From a virus (lineage: Duplodnaviria; Caudoviricetes): a stretch of 56,431 nucleotides of DNA. Of this stretch, positions 1 through 54,802 are shown one piece after another. Within the stretch, counting starts at the first letter, position 1. Each line of letters starts with the position of its first letter. The DNA is taken from IMG/VR virus record IMGVR_UViG_3300023214_000125, positions 1 through 56,431 of that record. One strand, written 5' to 3'. The notes beneath the pieces are model-generated. The model did not search any database. It worked only from the letters and a program-made list of their open reading frames with translations, and was not told the origin of the DNA. A program made the position numbers and the translations under genes.

Positions 1-68
1 GCCCGAGCTGGTTCACACAAACGGCAGCGTCAAGGCACACGGATGACGCACCAACATTCCACCGCAAC

Positions 69-100
69 AGCGCCCGGCTTCGGTCGGGCGCTTTGTATTG
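69..100 (+). terminator. Intrinsic terminator
   Basis: AGCGCCCGGC-TTCG-GTCGGGCGCT stem with UUCG loop, followed by TTGTATTG. Confidence 0.7.
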
Positions 101-140
101 GCGAGTTTCTATCAATTTTCCAAATTCGCCAAATTGCCCC

Positions 141-169
141 TTGACATTTGTATTAAAGTGTGATACAAT
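141..169 (+). promoter_or_regulatory. Early sigma70-type promoter
   Basis: TTGACA-17bp-TACAAT with extended -10 TG. Confidence 0.85.
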
Positions 170-214
170 GTATTCAACGACGAGGAACAGTAACTGGATA
201 ACAGGAGATACAAA

Positions 215-541
215 ATGAAGCAGAACAATAGCAATCACAGAGTGGTAGAGTTCACGAATCAGGGACGCATTACACTCTATGCGACTCCAGACGTAAAAAT
301 CGATGGTTTCGAGTACCGAGGCGCAAATGCGTGGTCAGCTCAAGCTACAAGTGCCAGTGAACTTGTAAACCTAGTAAAAAGCGCAATTGAGGCAGGCTGC
401 AGCTTGAGCATACAAGAGAAATTTATTGATCAGTCGATGCAGATGTTTGGGGACGTTCCTCTAACTATTCGCAATCATCCAGGCGATGATACTGAATTCA
501 CTCACTACGACAGCATCAGCGAATACAAAGCGCAACAATAG
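215..541 (+). CDS. Hypothetical early protein
   Basis: 108 aa ORF with strong SD (ACAGGAG) directly downstream of the promoter. Confidence 0.75.
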   Translation: MKQNNSNHRVVEFTNQGRITLYATPDVKIDGFEYRGANAWSAQATSASELVNLVKSAIEAGCSLSIQEKFIDQSMQMFGDVPLTIRNHPGDDTEFTHYDSISEYKAQQ

Positions 542-603
542 CCGAAACGCCCTCCGGGGCGTCTGACCGGGGATAGTCGCCCGGCGCTGAATGAGGCAGA
601 CTG
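541..603 (+). ncRNA. Type II hammerhead ribozyme (variant core)
   Basis: GCC-GAAA-CGCCC(TCCG)GGGCG-TC^ then stem I, then CTGAATGA-GGC; loop-I AGTC (575-578) can pair with 3' GACT (599-602); predicted cleavage after C563. Confidence 0.75.
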
Positions 604-621
604 AATACAGGAGACAATCAA

Positions 622-882
622 ATGACAATTCGCAAGGGTGAAATTATTGAGTACGCACTGACCAACAGTACAGCCATTCCTCCGAAGCGAGGCACGTTGA
701 TCGTAACTGGATTTGAACGTAACGACATTTTCAATACATACAACATGAATTTCGAGTACTTGATTGAGCAGGAGGGAAGCGAGGAACAGGCTGGCGAATC
801 CTCTGTAACTGTTGAGGAAGAAAAGCCGCCCCAGAAAATCACCTGGGGGTGGTACAACGAGGAATGGACGCTAACAGGATGA
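622..882 (+). CDS. Hypothetical early protein
   Basis: 86 aa ORF, SD CAGGAG. Confidence 0.7.
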   Translation: MTIRKGEIIEYALTNSTAIPPKRGTLIVTGFERNDIFNTYNMNFEYLIEQEGSEEQAGESSVTVEEEKPPQKITWGWYNEEWTLTG

Positions 883-1151
883 CTAGCCACCCGCTAACCT
901 TCCGCCCAGACGAGGCCAACGTGCCTCGTCTGGCGGAACTAGAAAAGCGGTACAGAAACCGCACAGCCGCAGTCAACGCAGCTATCGAGCTGCTGCACCA
1001 GCGAGAGTGCACCACGCCGAGCGTGGTGCATCGAATGGCCATCGACACCAGCGTGTGCTGCCTAGCGTGCAGCGCACAAGCCGAGTGGCTGGTGTTTTAC
1101 ACTGACAACAGTTTTAGCTGGCGATGCAGTCAGCACGCCAACGAAGCGTAG
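879..1151 (+). CDS. Small putative DNA-binding protein (RHH-like N-terminus, Cys-rich C-terminus)
   Basis: ATGA overlap with upstream stop; LTFRP...NRTAAVNAAIELL resembles a ribbon-helix-helix; CxxC...CxxH. Confidence 0.55.
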   Translation: MTSHPLTFRPDEANVPRLAELEKRYRNRTAAVNAAIELLHQRECTTPSVVHRMAIDTSVCCLACSAQAEWLVFYTDNSFSWRCSQHANEA

Positions 1152-1191
1152 GCGCATCGAGCGCCACAATGCCCCCACACGGGGCGGAAAG
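1151..1191 (+). repeat. Dispersed two-hairpin CRISPR-repeat-like unit, copy 1
   Basis: GGCGC-ATCGA-GCGCC ACAAT GCCCC-CACAC-GGGGC GGAAAG. Confidence 0.85.
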
Positions 1192-1202
1192 AGGAATGAA
1201 TT

Positions 1203-1454
1203 ATGTTAGTAAAAATTGGCGAAAAAAACATTCTCAATTACTTAAATCGAGATGCGCCTGCGAACGAAATGCAACAGATTGAAGCGGAAGTGGAGCGGCT
1301 TTTGAAGCCGCTCCAAGAAGACTACGGCCCAATCACCGTCCAGATTATCCCAGGACAACATGGCATTGCCGTATGGGATGACGAGGGAAGTTTTTTGTCG
1401 TACTTAGCCCCAAATGTGCGGCGAGTACTATGGCCTGTACTCGACAGGCACTAG
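1203..1454 (+). CDS. Hypothetical early protein
   Basis: 83 aa ORF, SD GAGGA immediately after repeat 1. Confidence 0.7.
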   Translation: MLVKIGEKNILNYLNRDAPANEMQQIEAEVERLLKPLQEDYGPITVQIIPGQHGIAVWDDEGSFLSYLAPNVRRVLWPVLDRH

Positions 1455-1468
1455 CAGGGGGAGGAATT

Positions 1469-2107
1469 ATGGATAAATGGGGGCGCGTGGGGAAATACCC
1501 CATCTACGAAGAAGTCAATGACTTGGCGCACAACGTGCGCCAAGAAACGGGATACCATACCTGGTGGCACAATGGCCAGGTGTTGGCATCCCCGCAACTA
1601 TACTCCTGGCGTGAATATATTGAAGTGCTTCTGTTCCATACTGACTCCCAGTATGGAGCCAGACCGGAGCACATCGCCGTAAATCACAAGGCTCTGCACC
1701 CATGCTGTGCAGAGTATCCCGAGTACCCTCCATTCGAGGGTACTTACGGGAAACAAATTCTGATCGGCGCGAGCGAAGCCAACTACGTAGTAAGTGGTTG
1801 GCGCCCATCGCCATACGGAAACAGCAAGGAGGGGGAGCGATTGTTCGTGATCGCTCTCTTCCCTGGAGGGGGGTCGATGGAAATCGACCTCCCGAGCCTG
1901 AACAAGGCGCAGGTTCGCTGCGCCGATCGGGAGTTGCACGGGTACGGCGACTCGTCGGCCCACGGCCCGGGGGTTGGAGGCGGCTCCACCTGGTCGACCT
2001 CGTTCTCTGTCTGGCTCCCGAAAACATCTATCTCGGGGATCTTGCTCCGTCGTCTCGACCTGGACGACGGAGAGCAGCGACTAATAAATGATATATTTGC
2101 TGATTGA
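1469..2107 (+). CDS. Hypothetical protein
   Basis: Start reset to ATG 1469 behind GGAGG; 212 aa. Confidence 0.7.
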   Translation: MDKWGRVGKYPIYEEVNDLAHNVRQETGYHTWWHNGQVLASPQLYSWREYIEVLLFHTDSQYGARPEHIAVNHKALHPCCAEYPEYPPFEGTYGKQILIGASEANYVVSGWRPSPYGNSKEGERLFVIALFPGGGSMEIDLPSLNKAQVRCADRELHGYGDSSAHGPGVGGGSTWSTSFSVWLPKTSISGILLRRLDLDDGEQRLINDIFAD

Positions 2108-2123
2108 CTTGACGTTGACGCCA

Positions 2124-2165
2124 TGGCGCACCGTGCGCCACAATTGCCCCACACGGGGCGGAAAG
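2124..2165 (+). repeat. Dispersed two-hairpin CRISPR-repeat-like unit, copy 2
   Basis: TGGCGCA-CCG-TGCGCCA CAATT GCCCC-ACAC-GGGGC GGAAAG. Confidence 0.85.
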
Positions 2166-2172
2166 AGAAAAA

Positions 2173-2724
2173 ATGTACGTACTAAACTTTGGGCACTCGA
2201 TGAGCGAAGAGCAGAAGAGAGAATTACAAGAGTCCTGTGGTGCAGAGCACATGGAATATCACGAAATTGCCGTGCAAGTGGACACGTCGAAGCCACTTGC
2301 ACCACAGATACAGCGAATAGTGGCGGAGGCCACAGATGCGCTGGGCGGCAATGTCTACAACGCCGATGTGATCATCCCGCCCGGTTTCAGCATCGTGGCC
2401 GCGCACCTCGTCCACCACTTCCCGACAGCCAACCTGGCTGTCATCGCCCGAGACACAAGCTCGCCGGTCCCGGTGTACCAGGCAACCGGCGAGCTGCTAC
2501 GGCCAGTGCGCCCCAACGGAGGAACCATGTACACACTGTTTGCCCGCTCGTTGGGTGCAGAGGCACGCGCCAACGGGCAATACCATCCTGTACGCGATGA
2601 TCTCGCGGTCGACCTTACACAGGGCGACTGCGAAAGGTGGGTGGATATTCCGCAAGCACTGCGAGAAGAGATTCTCGCAGCGTGGTATGCAGGTTGGCGC
2701 GCCGAAGACCTTATCCAGTCATGA
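2173..2724 (+). CDS. Csx15-like (cOA-binding/ring-nuclease family) domain fused to a small C-terminal domain
   Basis: N-terminal LNFGHxMxxEQ, VQVDxxKPLAPQI and IIPPG motifs recall Csx15 (LNFSHPLTxEQ...QFDxxxPFAPQV...NPP); internal in-frame SD GGAGG plus ATG at 2527. Confidence 0.6.
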   Translation: MYVLNFGHSMSEEQKRELQESCGAEHMEYHEIAVQVDTSKPLAPQIQRIVAEATDALGGNVYNADVIIPPGFSIVAAHLVHHFPTANLAVIARDTSSPVPVYQATGELLRPVRPNGGTMYTLFARSLGAEARANGQYHPVRDDLAVDLTQGDCERWVDIPQALREEILAAWYAGWRAEDLIQS

Positions 2725-2768
2725 GTGACATGAGTGAGCAGAATCGCCTGGACATAACAAATTGCCCC

Positions 2769-2797
2769 TTGACATAGTTGTTATCGTGTGATATAAT
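2769..2797 (+). promoter_or_regulatory. Early sigma70-type promoter
   Basis: TTGACA-17bp-TATAAT with extended TG; shares upstream AAATTGCCCC with the promoter at 141. Confidence 0.9.
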
Positions 2798-2840
2798 ATT
2801 ATCACAGACGACAATAGATAGATAGACAAGGAGACACGAA

Positions 2841-3092
2841 ATGACACAAGGCGAGATGCGCGAGATTGCGCTAGGGGCAGCACGAAGTGAATTGCGTCAG
2901 TTCGGCATCGAGCCGAAGACCGCCGACATTTATACCGCAGAGCAGGCGCTGGACAACATCCTACGCAGCACGCCGAATGCGATAGCTGCCCGCTGGTATG
3001 AAAATGCCAGCGATAATCAGTGGGAGTTGTTTAAGAGAGAGTGGAGACGATACCAAGCTGCGAGCCGTAGAGATTCTTACAATAATGACTAG
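2841..3092 (+). CDS. Hypothetical early protein
   Basis: 83 aa ORF, SD AAGGAG. Confidence 0.75.
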   Translation: MTQGEMREIALGAARSELRQFGIEPKTADIYTAEQALDNILRSTPNAIAARWYENASDNQWELFKREWRRYQAASRRDSYNND

Positions 3093-3300
3093 ACTCGACA
3101 AACTCATCACCGTGCAGCAGGCTGTACAACTCGCAGCCTCCCACGGCGAGGACGTGCCGCCCGTCACCGTGCGATGGGCCGCACGAAAGGGGTGGATACC
3201 CAACGCCCAGAAGCTAGGACGCGACTGGGTATTCACCGACGTAGATTTTGTATCCTGGCTTCGTAATCGACCGAAGCCGGGACCGAAGCCGAGCAAATAA
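3085..3300 (+). CDS. Excisionase/MerR-like (HTH_17-type) DNA-binding protein
   Basis: LITVQQAVQL...TVRWAARKGWIPNAQKLGRDWVF pattern. Confidence 0.75.
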   Translation: MTRLDKLITVQQAVQLAASHGEDVPPVTVRWAARKGWIPNAQKLGRDWVFTDVDFVSWLRNRPKPGPKPSK

Positions 3301-3301
3301 C

Positions 3302-3342
3302 TGGCGCATCGAGCGCCACAGTGCCCCGAACGGGGCGGAAAG
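3302..3342 (+). repeat. Dispersed two-hairpin CRISPR-repeat-like unit, copy 3
   Basis: TGGCGC-ATCGA-GCGCCA CAGT GCCCCG-AA-CGGGGC GGAAAG. Confidence 0.85.
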
Positions 3343-3353
3343 AGAGATGTGTT

Positions 3354-3659
3354 ATGTACACTCTTGAGTTTGGAGAAACCCCGTTGGGGCCTAATATCAT
3401 CTGGAACGAGGACGAGGACCGCTATGGCAGACTGTCAGGTGTGTATACCACACCTGACGGCAAGACATTTCCCGTATATTGCCGCGCCACCAACTGGGGC
3501 GGCAATGAAAGCGAATGGGAATGGCGTGTGGCTGGCATTACGATTCGCAGTTTGGACCGCCATGGGCGGCGGTTCGACGAGACGGAACTACAGGAATTTC
3601 GTACCCGTGTTAGAGAAGAAATTTCAAAAAATGATGTTGACAAGGGTGACGCAGCGTGA
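3354..3659 (+). CDS. Hypothetical early protein
   Basis: ATG 3354 after repeat 3; 101 aa. Confidence 0.65.
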   Translation: MYTLEFGETPLGPNIIWNEDEDRYGRLSGVYTTPDGKTFPVYCRATNWGGNESEWEWRVAGITIRSLDRHGRRFDETELQEFRTRVREEISKNDVDKGDAA

Positions 3660-3704
3660 TGTGTATCTGAGCACACACACATTGCCCCGACACGGGGCGG
3701 AAAG
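3660..3704 (+). repeat. Dispersed CRISPR-repeat-like unit, copy 4 (first hairpin divergent)
   Basis: ...CACATT GCCCCG-ACA-CGGGGC GGAAAG. Confidence 0.8.
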
Positions 3705-3713
3705 AAGGACACC

Positions 3714-3926
3714 ATTAAGCGGGAATTTGATATCGACCAGTTGCGACTGGTCGATGACGAAATCAACGGCTTGTCAATCTGCCGGACCGACACCGGTATG
3801 CGTAGACACATACCAGACGGATATCGGTGGATGCATACCATCCAGCCGTGGATTGGCGTGGTGTCGAATCCACTGGTGCATTTACCATTGCACGAATGCC
3901 TGAGATGGTGGAGGAATTTAGGTTAG
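3714..3926 (+). CDS. Hypothetical protein, possible ATT start
   Basis: In-frame ATT at 3714 lies just after GAAGGA; the ORF track starts at TTG 3741. Confidence 0.45.
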   Translation: MKREFDIDQLRLVDDEINGLSICRTDTGMRRHIPDGYRWMHTIQPWIGVVSNPLVHLPLHECLRWWRNLG

Positions 3927-3953
3927 CGTTCGCTGTGTAGTGGGACTACACAC

Positions 3954-4026
3954 AGCCCGGCCATCACACGATGCGCCGGGCTTTTCTTTTCTCGCGTAGG
4001 AGTCAACTCCTACGCGGTTTTTTGTT
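3954..4026 (+). terminator. Tandem intrinsic terminators at the early/late convergence
   Basis: AGCCCGGC...GCCGGGCT-TTTCTTTT and CGCGTAGGAGT-CA-ACTCCTACGCG-GTTTTTT. Confidence 0.8.
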
Positions 4027-4028
4027 GC

Positions 4029-4934
4029 CTACTGCACGGGCACCCACGGCAGCCACCAGCGCCACACCCTCACCGGCGGCACCGTGGCCGTACCCCCACG
4101 CACCGCGGCCCACGCGTCGATGCGCCCATGCCCAAACTCCACATCATACCCCGGCGCGCCCAAATCCACCGCGCTGCCCACGATAATCCGCGCCACATCC
4201 GCCGCGTCATGACCCTGGCTCAGCAGCAAACCCGCCAGGCCCGCCACGTGCGCAGCTGCGATACTGGAGCCACTTGCAAATGTGTAGCCTGGCCGCGCAT
4301 GGTGCGCGGCCTTGATGGATTCACCGGGCGCGCTGATGTCTACGTGCGCGCCCACATTACTCAACACGTATTGCTCATCCTGCTTGGTGGTTGCGCTCAC
4401 ACCAAGCACGCCAGGGTAGCACGCGGGGCAGATGACGGCATCGGTCCCACTGCTGCCGGCCGCGGCCACCAGAAACACGCCGTGCTCCTGCGCGTAGACG
4501 ATGGTGTCGTGTAAGTTTCCTGACGGCTGACTGTCGCCGAGGGCGTACAAAATTACATCCGCACCATTGCTGGTGGCCCACACTGTTGCATCCGCGATAC
4601 GTTGCCATCCGCCCGCCGTCGGCGTCTCCGCTAGCGCCTTGAGCGGCATGATGGAGCATTCGGGGCATACGCCGACGGTCGCGCCCGCTGCGACGGACGC
4701 CACCCGCGTCCCGTGCCCGTGGTCGTCCGCCGGCTCAGTGTCGTTGTGCACAAAATCGTATCCAGGTACGATGCCGTTCGGGAATTCCTCATGCTCGGCG
4801 TAGATGCCGGAATCAATGATAGCAATCACGACATCCGATGAGCCGCGCGTGATGGTCCACGCTTCCGGTGCGCGGATGAGGTCCAGGTTCCACGGGATGA
4901 CGGCGAATAGAAGCGTTATCAGCAGATGCGTCAT
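4029..4934 (-). CDS. Subtilisin-like S8 serine protease, probably exported
   Basis: IAIIDSG, HGHGT and SGSSIAAAHVAG catalytic-triad motifs; hydrophobic N-terminus. Confidence 0.9.
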   Translation of the reverse strand: MTHLLITLLFAVIPWNLDLIRAPEAWTITRGSSDVVIAIIDSGIYAEHEEFPNGIVPGYDFVHNDTEPADDHGHGTRVASVAAGATVGVCPECSIMPLKALAETPTAGGWQRIADATVWATSNGADVILYALGDSQPSGNLHDTIVYAQEHGVFLVAAAGSSGTDAVICPACYPGVLGVSATTKQDEQYVLSNVGAHVDISAPGESIKAAHHARPGYTFASGSSIAAAHVAGLAGLLLSQGHDAADVARIIVGSAVDLGAPGYDVEFGHGRIDAWAAVRGGTATVPPVRVWRWWLPWVPVQ

Positions 4935-5137
4935 GCGTCCTCGTTGTCTTCCGCGCTACGCACGAATCCCTCGTCCGCCGTGGCGATGTTCCATCCGTCC
5001 GCTGCCGGTGCGTCATGCTCAGCGCGCAGGTAGGCGAGGAATTGCTGCACGGCCTGCGCGGCCATCTGTTGCGCCTGCGCCAGTGCGTCGAGATGCGCCT
5101 GTTGCGCGTCGGTTAGTGGTTTGCGTTCGTCAGACAA
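4931..5137 (-). CDS. Hypothetical protein
   Basis: TTG start behind GGAGG; overlaps both neighbours. Confidence 0.55.
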   Translation of the reverse strand: MSDERKPLTDAQQAHLDALAQAQQMAAQAVQQFLAYLRAEHDAPAADGWNIATADEGFVRSAEDNEDA

Positions 5138-6413
5138 GTTGCGCCTCCAGGTTGTCGAGTCGGTCGAGTATGTGGTTGAGTGCGGCAATCGTGTCGCCGT
5201 GCAACGTGATGATGTTTAGCGATTTCCCCTGCGGATGGTCGTTGTCGCGGTCCATGCCGTAGTGTGGCGCGAGGTCTGTCACGATGCCGTCAAACTGCTC
5301 TCCATTGTAGCGCCCGTTCCGATACACAAAGCGCCGTCTCGCCCGTGCCGCGCCACGCACGCGAGCAATAGCGGCGTGTGTGCTGGGCAGCGCATCATCA
5401 ATGTTTTTCGATGCGGCGAAGCTGGTTTGGTCGCCAACAACTGTCCCCGCCGATTCATCGACAGATGGTGAGCCGGTACTGCCGGTTGGAGAAAATGATG
5501 ATATGCGTAAATCTCCCGTATTATCTACCCACGTACTGTACGTGGAGTTGTTCGCCGTGGTGTATTGCATTACGCCTGGTGCCCCGCCCACTGTGCCATC
5601 CGCCGCGTTTGTGTTACGACCCACCACAAAACGCGGTCCTGACTCGTCGTTGCCTAGGTCTCGGGTGTTTATGGTGAAATTTGAGGACACAGCCGACGCA
5701 AATGCCGAGCAAACATCATCACTGTCCCACGTGCAGGCGAGTAGATTGTTATTAAACGCGTCGCCGCTGCTCGTGGCCGCTACCACAATGCCACCTGCAA
5801 CCGACATTTGAGCGCCGGGCGCAGAGTTCAACACGCCCACGCGTTTATTGTCGCGGTCAATCGTCAAAATGGCCGTGCTGTCCGAGTGGTTGAAGTTGAG
5901 CACGTTTTCCGACACATCGTAGGTTAAATCAATCTCGCCCGCCCAATCGATCGACTGGTCACTTGTCGCGATGAAATTGATATTGCCATTTGTCAGAGTA
6001 ATATTGCCACTGGCGAGAGACAGACTATTCGAGCCGGTGAAGTTCATTGCGTCGCTGACAGTTACCGGTGCCTGAAGGCGAACATCTGTCCCGCCCAATT
6101 GTGCAAGACTTGTCGTTATAATAGCTCCGGTGGTGATGCTGCTCGTTGACGTAATTGCAGAGGTCAAGGATACTGCCGCGTTCAACGTAATTGTGCTGTT
6201 GAATGTGACAGACTGCCCGACCGCAAACGTGTGCGTGCCGGTCCAATTGTAGTCCGCGCTCTCGTCCACAGCGCCGCCGACCGACGCCTCCAGCGTGTCG
6301 AGGCGCGAATCCTGCGATACCAATTCGGCGTCCAACGTGCCGAGCGGCGTATTCACCGTGGACGCATCGTTCGACGCGCCATTGACGATTGGTGTGTGAA
6401 ATGTGGTGGTCAC
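5130..6413 (-). CDS. Tail fibre/spike with C-terminal intramolecular chaperone (peptidase S74-like)
   Basis: Thr/Ser/Asn-rich beta repeats; TSFAASKNI...RFVY...GIV...coiled-coil end; last tail gene. Confidence 0.75.
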   Translation of the reverse strand: MTTTFHTPIVNGASNDASTVNTPLGTLDAELVSQDSRLDTLEASVGGAVDESADYNWTGTHTFAVGQSVTFNSTITLNAAVSLTSAITSTSSITTGAIITTSLAQLGGTDVRLQAPVTVSDAMNFTGSNSLSLASGNITLTNGNINFIATSDQSIDWAGEIDLTYDVSENVLNFNHSDSTAILTIDRDNKRVGVLNSAPGAQMSVAGGIVVAATSSGDAFNNNLLACTWDSDDVCSAFASAVSSNFTINTRDLGNDESGPRFVVGRNTNAADGTVGGAPGVMQYTTANNSTYSTWVDNTGDLRISSFSPTGSTGSPSVDESAGTVVGDQTSFAASKNIDDALPSTHAAIARVRGAARARRRFVYRNGRYNGEQFDGIVTDLAPHYGMDRDNDHPQGKSLNIITLHGDTIAALNHILDRLDNLEAQLV

Positions 6414-24455: not shown

Positions 24456-25673
24456 TCAGTCCATCCGCTCCGGCTGCGTGCCGGTTGCGTCTGTGAAGCG
24501 CTGGAGGACAACTGCCACGTACGCGGCGCTTATCTCAATCGCGCGACATTGCCGGTTGAGTTGCTCGCAGGCCAACAGTGTAGACCCAGAGCCAAGAAAG
24601 AAGTCGGCCACAGTATCACCCTCGTCGGTATAATCAGATAGTACCTTCACAAATAACCCGATGGGCTTCTGTGTGGGGTGAAACCTCTCCTTCTCCTTGC
24701 CTATCAACCCGTTATACTCAAATTCGTACTTCTTGATAGACTTTCTATCGATATTGGTCCAGGCTAACTCGCAATCACCATAAGTAGGCATAGTATTGCA
24801 CTTATCCCACACAAGCCAATGGGACGATGCGGGCAACTTGTCCGCAAAGTTGTTTCCACCCCACAAAATCACCTGAACAGAGTTTTCAAGAATCATTGAG
24901 AAATCTTCCGGCGGCTCATTATCCCAATCATCGCTATACTGTCGCCGCGGGATAGGCTTCCCCTTTCCGGCAAAGGCGGCTTTGCCGGAAAAGCCTTTGT
25001 CCATCTTCACACCGTAAGGAGGGTCGTGCAACCCGACATCCGCCCGCTCCCCACCCATCACTCGCGCCACCACATCCGCATCGGTGCAGTCGCCGCAAAT
25101 GAGCCGGTGTGGTTGCCCCTTGCCGCTATCGAGTAGCCACAGTTGACCCGTATCGACGCCCCACTGCTCACGCAATTCCTCGGCCCGGTCCACCTGTGGC
25201 TCGGCGTCCACCGGCTCGCCCGCGTCGGGATACAGCCCAGCATCCTCCGCCATATCCGCCAACATCTGCTGCAAATGTTCGTCACCGGTGTTCACGTCGT
25301 GTAATAGTTCATCGAGTATCTCGACGTCATGCGTCGCCATGGCCGTAATCGGGTCAAACGTGGCGAGGGCCAGATGCTCTTCGTTTTCGCTCAGGTCCAC
25401 ATACTTGACCGGCACGGATGGTTCACCATTGCGCAAGGCCAGAGTCACGCGCAGATGACCGTCAATAATGTTTCCGCTTTGCTGATTAACGATCACGTCA
25501 TCAATCCAACCAATTTCGTCAAGTGCTCCAGATAGTGCATCCTGTTGAAATTTTGGATGGACCCTAAAGTTTCGTGGGTTGGCAAGCAATTGTTCCGGGT
25601 CTACATTATCGTAGCCACTGATGCGGTTGCGCCACGCGCCTTGGTTGCCGAGCTTATAACTGTCCGCCATCAT
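24456..25673 (-). CDS. ParB-like domain fused to N6-A/N4-C DNA methyltransferase
   Basis: NPRNFRVH and IIDGHLR (ParB-like); DPPY, HPTQKP and DFFLGSGS (MTase). Confidence 0.9.
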   Translation of the reverse strand: MMADSYKLGNQGAWRNRISGYDNVDPEQLLANPRNFRVHPKFQQDALSGALDEIGWIDDVIVNQQSGNIIDGHLRVTLALRNGEPSVPVKYVDLSENEEHLALATFDPITAMATHDVEILDELLHDVNTGDEHLQQMLADMAEDAGLYPDAGEPVDAEPQVDRAEELREQWGVDTGQLWLLDSGKGQPHRLICGDCTDADVVARVMGGERADVGLHDPPYGVKMDKGFSGKAAFAGKGKPIPRRQYSDDWDNEPPEDFSMILENSVQVILWGGNNFADKLPASSHWLVWDKCNTMPTYGDCELAWTNIDRKSIKKYEFEYNGLIGKEKERFHPTQKPIGLFVKVLSDYTDEGDTVADFFLGSGSTLLACEQLNRQCRAIEISAAYVAVVLQRFTDATGTQPERMD

Positions 25674-26002
25674 GCACCTGAACTCGGCGGTAGCGGACGC
25701 GGTGTCGGCGTTGGCTTGTAATGCTCCCGGTCGTACATCTTCGCTCGCGCCCGTGCGTTCACGTCCTTGGCCATGTCGCTGCACTTTTCTGCAATGGAAT
25801 AGCGCGCCTGCTCGCTAATACCACCCGCTAATTCGCGCTGAATAGCCATCGATGCATTAATACAAGCATCATGCACGCCGCGCGTGTAGCCATGCAGCCA
25901 CACCTCATTGGCTGGCACAAGTGGGTGCCTCTCATTGCCGGTCGCCAACAGGGGTGTGCAGGCGGCGCAGAATACGACCAGAAAAATAATCACATATCGC
26001 AT
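25670..26002 (-). CDS. Putative lipoprotein
   Basis: Hydrophobic leader ending CAAC; Pro-rich C-terminus. Confidence 0.55.
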   Translation of the reverse strand: MRYVIIFLVVFCAACTPLLATGNERHPLVPANEVWLHGYTRGVHDACINASMAIQRELAGGISEQARYSIAEKCSDMAKDVNARARAKMYDREHYKPTPTPRPLPPSSGA

Positions 26003-26028
26003 ACAAAATCATCCAATCGAGCGCACAA

Positions 26029-26367
26029 TCACCGGTCGCTTACATACCAATACACTTTGCGGTCAAAGACGCGCCCGGCGGACGTGGGCGCATTGACCTC
26101 GACATACAGCAGCCCAGACGCGGTCGCAGCGGGATTGACCCAAAACGTGATGGACGTGTTCGTGTCAGTGCGACTGTCGTTGTCCACCACGAGCCCGGTC
26201 TGCGCAGTCAGCGTGTACGAGGCAGTCAACGTCTCGCCGTTGGCCAACGCGTCATCCTGCGTCGTATCGCTGCCATTGGTGGTCGCCGCGAAATCGGCCT
26301 TGTAGTCGAAATACTCGTCCGGGTCAATCGGAAATGGGTTCTCCCGCGTGCCATCTGGGTCTGCCAT
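26029..26367 (-). CDS. Putative fibre adaptor protein
   Basis: DPDExxDYxxDF motif seen in phage fibre-adaptor proteins. Confidence 0.55.
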   Translation of the reverse strand: MADPDGTRENPFPIDPDEYFDYKADFAATTNGSDTTQDDALANGETLTASYTLTAQTGLVVDNDSRTDTNTSITFWVNPAATASGLLYVEVNAPTSAGRVFDRKVYWYVSDR

Positions 26368-26368
26368 G

Positions 26369-26584
26369 TCAGCCCCCTATGCGTTCCTCGCAATCAATGC
26401 CCTCGGCTACAGTCACGCCCAATGCGGGCGGAGTCGTCTGCGGCAAGGGCGTTGATTGCAAGCGGTGCACAAGATGTAGAGTAGCACAATCACCTTCTAC
26501 GCGTTTGACCACAAGCACATCGCCGATTGCCACGCCACTGTTCGTCTGCGGCCAAATCACCGTAATTGCATCGTCTATATTCAT
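26369..26584 (-). CDS. Hypothetical protein
   Basis: 71 aa coupled ORF. Confidence 0.5.
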   Translation of the reverse strand: MNIDDAITVIWPQTNSGVAIGDVLVVKRVEGDCATLHLVHRLQSTPLPQTTPPALGVTVAEGIDCEERIGG

Positions 26585-27363
26585 GGATACTGTGTCCCAT
26601 CCATATCAATATGCCGACAAAATATATTCGTATCTACCAGAAATGGATACTGCATTCCCTGGTAATCCGCCCACCCGGCCTTCTCGAAAAATTCATCTTG
26701 CATGATGCGAGTGCACCAGGCCAGGTCACTGGTCCCCTGCGTGACGTTAAATTGCGTCTGCTCCGGATTCATCCATATGTCGCGCGGTGTATTAAACACG
26801 CGCCGGGTCGTCGTGCCGTATACACTGTATGGCTCCGACTCCCCCCACATTGCACGTAGAATACTGCCGTGGATGAGCAGAATACCGGTCGGCACCCCGT
26901 CGCACCACACCAGGTCACCCAACTCGAAACCATCGAAAAACGATGTGCCGCGGCCACGATAAACCAACGGCTCCGATGGCCGCGAGCGGGTGTAGTAAAG
27001 ACCCGACACCACGGGGATATCTGCCTTGCGAATGTACTGATTAATGCGAATGAATGCATCTGGTGGCAACAGTACATCATGCTCGATAAGTAGAAGCCAC
27101 TCAAAATCCTGTTCCACCACCTGCTGCACAATGAGATTCTGTGCGTCGTCCACCTGATAGCGCAGTGGGATGAAGCTGTCTACAAACTGACACATTTGCA
27201 CCATCGACCAGTTTGTAGGGATGATTTGCCCGTAGCGCGCCTGCACCCATTCCATGCGTACAAGTCCGGTAGCCGGTGTGGCCACGAGCAGCCGGTTGAC
27301 ATAGCCAGGGTCGCCACTGTCTCTGATGATGGTGCGATAATCTCGCACGGGGGAATCAATCAT
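26581..27363 (-). CDS. GT-A fold (GT2-like) glycosyltransferase
   Basis: LLVATP, LLLIEHDV (DxD-like), VVSGLY, TSDLAWC and VDTNIFCRH motifs. Confidence 0.75.
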   Translation of the reverse strand: MIDSPVRDYRTIIRDSGDPGYVNRLLVATPATGLVRMEWVQARYGQIIPTNWSMVQMCQFVDSFIPLRYQVDDAQNLIVQQVVEQDFEWLLLIEHDVLLPPDAFIRINQYIRKADIPVVSGLYYTRSRPSEPLVYRGRGTSFFDGFELGDLVWCDGVPTGILLIHGSILRAMWGESEPYSVYGTTTRRVFNTPRDIWMNPEQTQFNVTQGTSDLAWCTRIMQDEFFEKAGWADYQGMQYPFLVDTNIFCRHIDMDGTQYP

Positions 27364-51700: not shown

Positions 51701-54700
51701 ATGAAATTTGAGATGCCGAAGTTATTTGTAGATGAGTATCGAATGCAGCCTGTTTCCTTTGGGTTTGGCGATATGGGCAAGGTCACATTCCTGCGCACGT
51801 ACAGCCGACAAGATAATCCAAATGTGGACGGTCAGGAGGGCTGGGCGGATGTGTGCGAGCGTGCAATCAATGGGATGTATTCATTTCAGCAGCAATGGTG
51901 CGAAGAAAATGGCGTAAACTGGAATTACGAGAAGGCTGTACGCAGTGCAAAAGATGCGTACGACATGATGTTTCAGATGAAGTGGACCCCACCTGGGCGT
52001 GGATTGTCCATGATGGGTGTGCCGTTCGTGATGGAACGCGGCGAGGTCGAGAGTCTTCAAAACTGTGCGTTCATTAGCAGCAAATATATTGATCGTGAGA
52101 GAGGTGATTTCTTCGCTTGGCTGATGGAGCGGTCCATGTTGGGTGTGGGTGTGGGGTTTGATACCCGAGGATCTGGCAAGCTACGGATACACGCCAAGCC
52201 CGGACAGGAGGGTCGTACGTTTATGGTGCCCGATAACCGACAGGGCTGGGCGGAATCTGTGCGCATGTTAATTGATTCTTATCTCAATCCCACGATGCCA
52301 CACTGGCAATTTGACTATAGCCTAGTGCGCCCGCGGGGTAGTTTGATCCGTGGCTTTGGTGGCGTGGCGTCTGGGCCTGAACCGCTAATTGACCTGCACA
52401 GATCCATCCGCAAGATTCTGGATACGCAGGATGGCCAGCTTCTGAACAGCCGCACCATCGTTGATTTGTGCAATCTGATAGGCAAATGCGTTGTGTCAGG
52501 GAATGTGCGGAGATGTCTCCCAAAGGGAACGCTCATACATACAAGGGATGGCCTTGTGCCTATTGAGAATATTTGCCCAGGGATGGCGGCTAAAACATCG
52601 GATGGGTATGCGGAAATTAGCGAATTAATCGAGCAGGGTACGCAAGCAACAATTCTTATTCAGACTCAGCTCGGTGATTTTGAGTGTACCAAGTCTCATC
52701 GGGTGGCTGTGATGACTTCGCCAGGAGAGTACACATGGAAACTTGCATCTGAGCTATTGCAAGGCGAACGACTAGTTTTTGTTGAGGGTATGATTAATGG
52801 TGTAAACACTCATTTGCCTGATTGGTCGTATGATAAGCCGTTGCATTCGACTACATGCGTTGATATAGATATCCCCACCTTAGATGCAGATATGGCTTGG
52901 TTCATTGGAATGTTTCATGGCGATGGTTATGTTTACCCTAATTTTGAGAATGGTGGATTCAATGCTTACGTGATGGTTGCCTGTGACACCAAACATTCCG
53001 AAATTATCAATCGGGTGGAACAGCAGATAGAGCGATTCGGGGTAAACATAAATCGAGTTGAGCCTTCCGAGTCCGATAAATCCGTAAAGGTACGGAGTCA
53101 GTCAAAGCAACTTGCTTGGTATTTATCTCAGATTAAGGTCGCTAACGAGCCGATCAGTGTGCCAGATTTCATCTTAAAGGGCACCCATAGAGTGCGAGCA
53201 GCTTATGTAGCTGGACTCTTTGATGCTGATGGCAGCTCGGCTACTAGGCCTGTTCTGGTTGCGTCCTCAGTGTATCCGACTTACTTGAAAGAAGTGCAGT
53301 CGCTTTGCGCATCTTTGGGGATTCCAACGAGAATGCGATTGCATAGAAAAGCAAGAGGGCAATGGAGGTCACTGTATCATCTCTCCGTAGTTGGCGCTCG
53401 TGCGGTAGGCAGATTTCAAGGTATTGTGACCCCTTATAGTTCGAAGTACGAAGATACACGCAAGACACAGAGAAGCCAACATGGATATGGGTATGAGTTG
53501 CTAGGCGGGGATTGCAAGGGGCTAATACCCATCAAGGTGAATGGGATTCAGCCGGGGCGAACGGTTGAAACTTTCGATATAAGCGTTCCTGGCGCACATG
53601 AGTTTGTAGCTGCCGAGGGTTTACTTGTTCACAATTCTGCCGAGATTGCACTTGGCGATCCAAGCGATAGCGAATTCATTAACTTGAAAAACTACGATTT
53701 GTATCCCGAGCGTGCTGAGTATGGTTGGGTGTCTAACAATTCCGTATTTGCCGAAGTCGGCATGGATTACAGCAGCGTAGCCGAACGCACGTGGGCGAAT
53801 GGAGAGCCAGGCTACTACTGGCTGGAAAATGCGCGCCAGTACGGGCGCATGAATGGGGTGCGCAAACCCGATGTGGGGGTGATGGGCGCCAACCCATGCA
53901 ACGAACAGAATTTGCACCATCGTGAGGAATGCACGTTGGTGGAAATCTTTTTGCCACGGTGCAAAAACAAGCAGGAGTTTGAGCGAGCTATCAAGTATGC
54001 TTACCTGTATGGGAAAAGTGTTACCTTGGCCAATGAACGCATTCGTGATCCGCAGGCGCGCGATGTAATGTGCCAAAACCGGCGGATCGGATTGTCGGTT
54101 ACAGGCATTACTCAATTTGTTGGACAACGCGGCATGGGCACATTGCGGGATTGGCTGGATCACGGCTATTACATTAGCGGTTACTATGACCAGCTATATT
54201 CGCAATGGCTAAACGTCAATGAATCCATCCGCCGCACCAGCGTCAAGCCCAGCGGAACCGTCTCTATCGTAGCCGGTGTAACGCCTGGCGTTCATTTTGC
54301 GCCCGCTGGTCGCCATCATATCCGCCGTATTGTGCTGGCAGATGATAGCCCGCTTGTGGAGCCATTGCAGGCCGCAGGGTATCCTATCGAGCCGTCCGCT
54401 TATACACCGGGTAGCGTGGCGGTGTCGTTCCCTGTTGACGCTGGACCGGGCGTGCGTAGCGAAAGTGACGTAAGTATGGACGAACAATTGCAGCTTGTAT
54501 CACTGGTGCAACGCCATTGGGCCGACAACGCCGTGAGCGCCACGGTGAAGTTTGATCGAGAGGCAGTTGGGCCAGATGACATTAAACAGGCGCTTGAACA
54601 TTATCAACATCGACTCAAGGGAATTAGTTTCTTGCCAAGTGAGGGCCACGGCTACGAACAAGCGCCATATGAGAGTATTGATAAAGAGACGTACCGTGAC

Positions 54701-54802
54701 TTGATGGCAAACATTGCGCCATTTCGGGCAAGCGGTATTGGGGAGCAGGACAAGCAGATGGATCTTTACTGTGATGGCGACGCTTGTGTAGTCGCCGTGT
54801 AA
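51701..54802 (+). CDS. nrdJ: Class II (B12-dependent) ribonucleotide reductase with intein
   Basis: RTYSR, PPGRGL, NCAF, GANPCNEQ, TSVKPSGT and C-terminal CDGDAC. Confidence 0.92.
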   Translation: MKFEMPKLFVDEYRMQPVSFGFGDMGKVTFLRTYSRQDNPNVDGQEGWADVCERAINGMYSFQQQWCEENGVNWNYEKAVRSAKDAYDMMFQMKWTPPGRGLSMMGVPFVMERGEVESLQNCAFISSKYIDRERGDFFAWLMERSMLGVGVGFDTRGSGKLRIHAKPGQEGRTFMVPDNRQGWAESVRMLIDSYLNPTMPHWQFDYSLVRPRGSLIRGFGGVASGPEPLIDLHRSIRKILDTQDGQLLNSRTIVDLCNLIGKCVVSGNVRRCLPKGTLIHTRDGLVPIENICPGMAAKTSDGYAEISELIEQGTQATILIQTQLGDFECTKSHRVAVMTSPGEYTWKLASELLQGERLVFVEGMINGVNTHLPDWSYDKPLHSTTCVDIDIPTLDADMAWFIGMFHGDGYVYPNFENGGFNAYVMVACDTKHSEIINRVEQQIERFGVNINRVEPSESDKSVKVRSQSKQLAWYLSQIKVANEPISVPDFILKGTHRVRAAYVAGLFDADGSSATRPVLVASSVYPTYLKEVQSLCASLGIPTRMRLHRKARGQWRSLYHLSVVGARAVGRFQGIVTPYSSKYEDTRKTQRSQHGYGYELLGGDCKGLIPIKVNGIQPGRTVETFDISVPGAHEFVAAEGLLVHNSAEIALGDPSDSEFINLKNYDLYPERAEYGWVSNNSVFAEVGMDYSSVAERTWANGEPGYYWLENARQYGRMNGVRKPDVGVMGANPCNEQNLHHREECTLVEIFLPRCKNKQEFERAIKYAYLYGKSVTLANERIRDPQARDVMCQNRRIGLSVTGITQFVGQRGMGTLRDWLDHGYYISGYYDQLYSQWLNVNESIRRTSVKPSGTVSIVAGVTPGVHFAPAGRHHIRRIVLADDSPLVEPLQAAGYPIEPSAYTPGSVAVSFPVDAGPGVRSESDVSMDEQLQLVSLVQRHWADNAVSATVKFDREAVGPDDIKQALEHYQHRLKGISFLPSEGHGYEQAPYESIDKETYRDLMANIAPFRASGIGEQDKQMDLYCDGDACVVAV
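52514..53635 (+). mobile_element. Intein with LAGLIDADG homing endonuclease
   Basis: GNVRR|CLPKGT...IGMFHGDG...AGLFDADG...LLVHN|SAEI; 374 aa. Confidence 0.93.

Follow-up and report, generated by a model that had tools for sequence, protein, structure and literature searches.

A Csx15-Like Domain Fused to a Small Helical Domain in a Tailed-Phage Record, a Candidate Quencher of Cyclic-Oligoadenylate Signals

Described Csx15 Systems and the Phage Protein

The closest described relatives of the protein studied here are the Csx15 proteins of type III CRISPR systems. Csx15 dimers stack head-to-tail around cyclic tetra-adenylate (cA4), and the site combines the head histidine of one dimer with tail arginines contributed by its neighbour. 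Some members cleave, others only sequester, and canonical Csx15 can also cut the trinucleotides of cyclic-oligonucleotide-based antiphage signalling systems (CBASS). In this study, a window of 56,431 bases, which is the entire IMG/VR virus record IMGVR_UViG_3300023214_000125, was analysed, with the open reading frame (ORF) 2173–2724 and its product of 183 amino acids (aa), P0001, as the subject. A first-pass annotation of the same DNA had described positions 2173–2526 as a captured host Csx15-like protein and as a candidate cyclic-oligoadenylate sponge or ring nuclease against type III CRISPR. This interpretation was partly supported. The ORF is a two-domain fusion. Judged from sequence and models, residues 1–113 are a real Csx15 homologue; residues 119–183 form a second domain, which the single-domain description had overlooked. 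Position 2526 marks only the end of the Csx15-like part and the linker, and the frame continues to 2724. P0001 may be a viral Csx15 that counters type III CRISPR, and perhaps CBASS as well, by sponging cyclic oligoadenylates or by acting as a slow ring nuclease, a reading to which we give about even credence.

The concept of a viral Csx15 is already known. The Discussion of Chi et al. states that Csx15 was seen in no phage genome, and Hoikkala et al. ran ring-nuclease hidden Markov models on 28,114 phage genomes. Klimavicius et al. (28 Oct 2026, bioRxiv 10.64898/2026.10.26.761840) reported one viral Csx15 homologue in NCBI (Lokiarchaeota virus Skoll) and, from viral metagenomes, over 20 others, and proposed for them, without an assay, the name AcrIII-3 (vCsx15) and a role as anti-CRISPR ring nuclease. 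A full-text literature search for "AcrIII-3", "vCsx15" and "viral Csx15" returned only this preprint. Like vCsx15 as described there, P0001 is a metagenome-derived Csx15 homologue on a viral genome with a proposed anti-CRISPR role. The two were compared by description only, and P0001 may be among the IMG/VR sequences of that preprint. The contig that encodes P0001 is viral, 56 kb long, and bears structural genes, whereas the reported AcrIII-3 sequences were mostly in prophage regions. The extra domain of P0001 is C-terminal, whereas the fusions described by Klimavicius et al. are N-terminal to Csx15. P0001 thus adds to the known concept a C-terminal fusion, a clear context in a phage genome, and a clade in which one half of the composite site is lacking.

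P0001 resembles the canonical proteins HaCsx15, CsCsx15, CliCsx15, and PfCsx15 in its five-strand Rossmann-like fold, in the head motif with H8, and in the dimer, which is predicted in P0001. Unlike canonical Csx15, P0001 has no central-histidine loop and no arginine helix, and it carries a C-terminal domain of 65 residues. It is virus-encoded rather than located beside cas10, and it falls outside the Cas10-linked clade.

AcrIII-1 (DUF1874/PF08960) has the same proposed role, viral removal of cA4 against type III CRISPR, and belongs to a different family from P0001. AcrIII-1 is a fast enzyme. The PF08960 profile (STIV_B116-like), which we take to represent DUF1874/AcrIII-1, gave 0 matches across the whole record, consistent with the first-pass statement that the protein is distinct from AcrIII-1. 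AcrIII-2, a viral SAVED ring nuclease (PDB 9r8s), is a duplicated SAVED monomer, while P0001 has a single Csx15-like domain and is a predicted dimer. Cash, a Schlafen–Csx15 effector (9ylu), is like P0001 in that a Csx15 domain is joined to another domain, and it was the best solved profile match. The partner in Cash is described as an N-terminal tRNA nuclease of host defence, whereas the partner in P0001 is tiny and C-terminal, and P0001 is viral.

Homology, Residues, and Relatives of the Csx15-Like Domain

The NCBIfam model CAS_Csx15 (NF040560) matched P0001 with 35.8 bits (cut-off 35, E 8.2e-9). It also matched 9 of the 10 scanned N-terminal relatives, and 6 of them passed the cut-off. HMMER was used to search 1.84 billion representatives, and 45 proteins were obtained at E ≤ 0.001: one full-length copy with 98% identity, 37 matching the N-terminal part only, and 7 matching only residues ~120–179. 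A profile built from 38 N-terminal sequences matched the Csx15 domain of CbCash in the PDB (9ylu, E 6.7e-9, residues 168–285) as well as 9tet and 9teu, both of which are entries named Csx15. For comparison, 16 Cas10-linked Csx15 sequences from Chloroflexota genomes, the phylum of a Ktedonobacteraceae metagenome-assembled genome (MAG), were used as the canonical set. The hhalign probability against this set was 98.3% for P0001 alone (E 1.2e-14, residues 1–103) and 99.4% for its subgroup. The homology spanned ~105 residues, and identity to the Cas10-linked clade was 28–37%. By these E-values the resemblance to Csx15 greatly exceeds what chance would give.

The three-dimensional structure of P0001 was modelled with AlphaFold2 (AF2). 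The predicted local distance difference test (pLDDT) was 87–98 over residues 1–110. In the model, a five-stranded sheet forms a Rossmann-like fold akin to those of CARF and SAVED. The ESM Atlas's own model reached a template-modelling (TM) score of 0.81 over 115–116 residues to clusters named Csx15, which were commonest in Chloroflexota. A homodimer of P0001 was predicted with a score of 0.64, against 0.00 for the best control; this prediction may reflect memory of solved Csx15 dimers. Of 30 solved homo-pairs, 20 attained the mark used for this score, as did 1 of 23 single chains. The runs agreed in at least 78% of contacts, with a partner pLDDT of at least 78. The predicted interface consisted of residues 38–46, 67–84, 88–95, and 105–114, the same central helix and strands as in Csx15.

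Other searches gave less. PADLOC returned only weak Csx15/Csx20 rows for P0001. A phmmer search of P0001 alone against PDB sequences gave no Csx15 match, and the solved chains were reached by the family profile alone. Foldseek against the PDB gave nothing at E ≤ 0.001, the best match being the CARF domain of Thermus Csm6 (E 9e-3). Solved Csx15 chains were absent from the matches in two fold libraries, which may not contain them. The Csx15-like character claimed in the first-pass annotation was borne out by NF040560, hhalign, and the Atlas.

Annotated phage and plasmid collections yielded no relatives. A megablast search with window positions 1–6000 and tblastn searches with P0001 and the related P0007 gave no match in 50,697 GenBank phage records, and tblastn with P0001 gave none in 72,556 plasmids. 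Scans of genome contigs and of metagenome contigs gave one locus each, the same Ktedonobacteraceae Csx15. No cas gene was recognisable by eye on its 7.5-kb contig. This csx15 covers profile positions 2–103 on contig C349 and 94–125 at the end of contig C130, and is an assembly-split or frameshifted gene.

The invariant positions of the 16 canonical sequences include H8, H84, R118, R122, and R125. The head catalytic histidine is reported as H8 in HaCsx15 and CsCsx15, H13 in CliCsx15, and H11 in PfCsx15, and the central histidine as H90 in CliCsx15 and H82 in PfCsx15. In HaCsx15, cleavage is lost in the H8A mutant, binding in R118A, and catalysis in R125A; in CliCsx15, H90A abolishes oligomerisation. 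The H8 of P0001 aligned with the canonical invariant H8, and the preceding canonical serine is a glycine in P0001. P0001 keeps the base-stacking aromatic residue before the last strand (Y102). It also shares the Q-x-D/P-L-x-P-Q segment and the PPG motif with canonical Csx15. The motifs quoted in the first-pass annotation (LNFxH, QVDxxxPLAPQI, and PPG) are all present, as LNFGH at residues 4–8, QVDTSKPLAPQI at residues 35–46, and PPG at residues 69–71.

By its sequence, P0001 belongs to a "short-tail" Csx15 group, in most members of which both the arginine helix and the central-histidine loop are missing. All 57 short-tail relatives examined have the head motif and its catalytic histidine. A tree was built from 79 rows; P0002 (the 98%-identical copy of P0001), the fragment P0004, the seven proteins with only the C-terminal domain, and P0068–P0149 except five named Csx15 were left out. 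The loop-bearing Cas10-linked sequences formed one clade with a support of 99/92, and P0001 was outside it. P0001 paired with P0003 (99/93) within a poorly resolved group. The subgroup profile, searched in 401 Chloroflexota genomes, gave canonical loci only, at no more than 61 bits, and no short-tail form. The origin as a captured host protein proposed in the first-pass annotation was thus not borne out, as P0001 stands outside the Cas10-linked clade and its subgroup was absent from the 401 genomes searched.

A second short-tail protein with a viral context is P0047; its gene is one of several small genes in a row on an IMG/VR contig of 73.7 kb that also carries a large terminase. IMG/VR was scanned for the N-terminal domain with P0001, A6, P0007, A9, P0047, and P0011, and viral loci were obtained from P0047 only. 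When 10 ORFs surrounding the P0047 gene were scanned with PHROGs, a single weak match, of DNA-binding type, was returned. The viral status of this contig rests on the IMG/VR class and the large-terminase match. The terminase region (G402, 25681–27135) contains four in-frame stops (one TGA, one TAG, and two TAA), which an intron, a split of the gene, or faulty assembly could explain.

The cellular relatives were strongly linked to type III CRISPR. The 38-sequence profile gave 87 matches in 73 of the 401 genomes, and the Cmr2-type Cas10 model had matches in 98. A Cas10 match was present in 63 of the 73 Csx15-positive genomes, compared with 35 of the 328 negative ones, in line with the first-pass statement that Csx15 is normally found in type III CRISPR loci. 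A Fisher p-value on these genome counts is not a true probability because the genomes are related. At least 36 of the 87 Csx15 matches, in at least 33 genomes, were within 15 kb of a Cas10 match; the true number may be higher, since many contigs are short and 15 Cas10 matches fell outside the count. No Cas-like ORF was noted among the scanned ORFs of the phage record, where no search aimed at cas10 was made.

The sponge or slow ring nuclease reading builds on the homology, the fold, the predicted dimer, the retained head histidine, and the position in a promoter-driven phage block. P0001 would be made early in infection. Residues 1–113 form a divergent domain of the Csx15 family that is predicted to dimerise. 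This domain may soak up, and perhaps slowly cleave, cA4-type messengers made by type III Cas10 of the host, and possibly also CBASS trinucleotides. Effectors activated by cyclic oligoadenylate would thereby be kept silent during infection. A sponge or weak enzyme would be expected rather than a fast ring nuclease because the tail half-site, composed of the central-histidine loop and the arginine helix, is missing.

Several observations weigh against this reading. A deletion of seven residues in P0001 takes out the L-H-G-R loop with the invariant central histidine (H84). The gap is flanked by H81 and H82, of which H82 aligned with the second histidine, just before the F-P motif. The alignments between P0001 and canonical Csx15 end at about residue 103–110, so that the arginine helix (R118, R122, and R125) has no counterpart; R110 and R113 are the only arginines after the last strand. 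By sequence, two of the three experimentally important residue sets are absent from P0001. In a rough count by regular expression over the 12 residues that follow the last strand, 25 of the 57 short-tail sequences had at least two arginines and 19 had none. The NF040560 match is just above the cut-off and spans only profile positions 1–79 of 125, and Pfam and PHROGs scans of the whole P0001 gave no match. The fused C-terminal domain is attached at the very surface through which canonical Csx15 builds its head-to-tail filaments, and it could block their formation. Both Csx15 papers argue that viruses would be ill served by slow turnover or by sponging.

The same losses point to a second reading, in which P0001 has a Csx15-derived fold without cyclic-oligoadenylate chemistry, binds another ligand or partner through the conserved head surface, and has a role apart from cA4 quenching. 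We regard this as rather unlikely. It is consistent with the missing loop and helix, with the unconserved arginines after the last strand in the short-tail group, and with a group of which no member was found beside Cas10 in the 401 genomes. PfCsx15, an orphan Csx15, is also reported to have no enzyme activity. The head motif with the catalytic histidine in 57 of 57 relatives argues otherwise, as it points to selection on the known ligand-facing surface, and P0001 likewise retains the fold, a predicted dimer, and the aromatic residue for base stacking.

The Fused C-Terminal Domain

The C-terminal domain alone was modelled with AF2 as three helices with a pLDDT of 84. Its seven homologues, covering residues ~120–179, are stand-alone or C-terminal and have 63–131 aa, and the alignment of eight sequences showed 11 invariant columns. 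Three IMG/VR contigs carry a homologue, and the Atlas neighbours of the domain are mostly viral. On these contigs (L032–L034, 3796–4038), the C-domain homologue adjoins a homologue of window gene 2841–3092 (+), with 48% identity to the window gene (E 2e-14). The two genes appear to travel together because they are adjacent on those contigs as well. Their order on the IMG/VR contigs is reversed relative to the window. No decisive match to the C-terminal domain came from Pfam, PHROGs, NCBIfam, a profile search of the PDB, VIA-wide, or BFVD, and a word-index search for shorter proteins found nothing. A relationship to ribosome modulation factor (RMF)/CrpP was considered and rejected (hhalign, 2.75%).

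Among the 45 matches, the fused form was found in P0001 and P0002 only. P0002 is a 183-aa sequence from a protein collection; it differs from P0001 by three substitutions, all of which change amino acids and leave the frame intact. The nearest relatives of the N-terminal domain, P0003 and P0047, are unfused and end at the position matching R113. The GGAGG in the linker is probably a relic, the ribosome-binding site of what was formerly an independent downstream gene. We read the fusion as a result of stop-codon loss between two adjacent early genes, and the downstream part from the ATG at 2527 may still be translated separately. A frameshift or assembly artefact is unlikely because both alternative frames are free of stops near the junction and because P0002, with its three substitutions, has the same length of 183 aa.

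The architecture of a sensor with an extra domain raises another explanation, namely that the Csx15 part senses host cA4 and switches on or concentrates the C-terminal domain, so that the phage reacts to the alarm signal. Csx15 is the reported cA4 sensor of the Schlafen nuclease in Cash, whose structure 9ylu was matched by the profile, and the C-terminal domain is a conserved family, as the invariant columns showed. The junction instead looks like a recent loss of a stop codon, with the internal GGAGG and ATG kept, and the closest relatives are unfused. The C-terminal domain has 65 residues and matches no known catalytic or binding family, and the partner is N-terminal in the Csx15 fusions reported so far. 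We consider this explanation very unlikely.

The fused domain may have a structural part in a further proposal. P0001 may stand for a virus-linked short-tail branch of Csx15 in which only the head half of the composite cA4 site is left. A head-only short-tail dimer without a filament of its own would cap cA4-bound head-to-tail assemblies of the host, formed by Csx15, SAVED, or CARF effectors, or would be a non-filamenting sponge; the fused domain would replace or shield the missing tail. We hold this to be improbable. If true, it would amount to poisoning the filaments of immune effectors that depend on cyclic nucleotides, a mode of counter-defence so far undescribed.

The gene may also be an inert passenger or a gene in decay, acquired by the phage lineage as a Csx15-like gene, fused by accident, and without present function. 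The loss of the tail half-site, the confinement of the fusion to the P0001/P0002 lineage, and the rarity of viral Csx15, with no match to P0001 or P0007 in the GenBank phage records, are consistent with this. Against it, the frame of 183 codons is intact, the start lies directly 3' of a start-associated repeat that includes a ribosome-binding site, the predicted fold has high confidence, and all differences in P0002 leave the frame intact. This explanation receives the least credence of those considered here.

The Phage Gene Block and Its Meaning

The record is classed as a linear virus, with a CheckV completeness of 78%. Tailed-phage genes were matched in it, namely portal, large terminase, tape measure, DNA methyltransferase, and ribonucleotide reductase, so the protein is phage-encoded as first annotated. 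The ORF 2173–2724 lies in a + strand block of small genes at 215–3900, and the portal, terminase, and tape-measure genes are on the opposite (−) strand. The features of this region are listed in Table 1.

Table 1. Positions of the ORF, its domains, and the elements around it in the window.
Feature	Positions	Strand	Details
Whole ORF (P0001)	2173–2724	+	Csx15-like domain and small helical phage domain; 183 aa; ATG 2173; stop 2722–2724
Csx15-like domain, residues 1–113	2173–2511	+	Five strands, three helices; H8, Y102, and PPG kept; R110 and R113 at the end
Linker, residues 114–118	2512–2526	+	Holds GGAGG 2518–2522; in-frame ATG at 2527 after 4 nt
C-terminal three-helix domain, residues 119–183	2527–2721	+	Family of stand-alone proteins of 63–74 aa
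Repeat family D1, 46 nt, four copies	1151–1196, 2125–2170, 3303–3348, 3664–3709	+	From repeat finding; 63–100% identity
Near-consensus sigma-70 promoter	141–169	+	11/12 matches; would drive gene block 215–2724 including the ORF; within repeat D2
Consensus sigma-70 promoter	2769–2797	+	12/12 matches, extended TG; just 3' of the ORF, opens the next gene block
Type II hammerhead ribozyme	540–605	+	Rfam RF02276, 45.7 bits (gathering score 37), E 3.2e-6, full model length
Terminator-like hairpin	3992–4017		Closes the + strand small-gene block

It is a fair inference from the sequence that the block with the ORF is early and driven by the host polymerase, because of the two sigma-70 promoters, the terminator-like site, and the orientation opposite to the structural genes. 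The location in an early region claimed in the first-pass annotation accordingly stands as far as a promoter-driven block of small genes is concerned; "early" itself is inferred. The promoters with their flanks form a 54-nt repeat with two copies, at 130–183 and 2758–2811 (+), with 78% identity. A 21-nt palindrome overlaps the −10 region of the second copy and could be an operator. The hammerhead ribozyme sits between the first two genes of the block and would cleave the early transcript.

The ORF is directly behind repeat copy 2, as first annotated: this D1 copy stops 2 nt short of the start codon. The D1 copies have two short hairpins followed by a purine-rich, Shine–Dalgarno-like run, and end a few bases 5' of a start codon in the three of three cases checked. 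The consensus fold of the four copies had 11 pairs and one compensatory change. The repeat is reminiscent of the start-associated sequences of some mycobacteriophages.

The phage portal is 54% identical to Arthrobacter phages, and among 391 Chloroflexota genomes the best reached 49%. A search for tRNA genes gave none. A subtilase-family (Peptidase_S8) protein is encoded at 4029–4934 (−; E 1.7e-38), at the end of the − strand structural arm, and an adjoining ORF of 427 aa, rich in Ser, Thr, and Asn, could be a tail fibre. The ribonucleotide reductase at 51701–54802 (+) has 1033 aa, and its PHROG match is restricted to residues 644–1031; a weak HNH-endonuclease match at residues 396–456 hints at an inserted intein or homing element. 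The DNA methyltransferase at 24456–25784 (−) has a fused ParB-like N-terminal domain.

Ring nucleases and sponges are viral means of silencing cyclic-nucleotide immunity. P0001 is a concrete test case, located on a 56-kb tailed-phage contig in a promoter-driven, probably early block behind a start-associated repeat. It is a natural "mutant", in which the head histidine is kept and the central-histidine loop and the arginine helix are gone. P0001 may therefore bear on whether half of the composite site is enough for sponging, whether viral Csx15 would serve as an anti-CRISPR, and whether it would act on CBASS signals.
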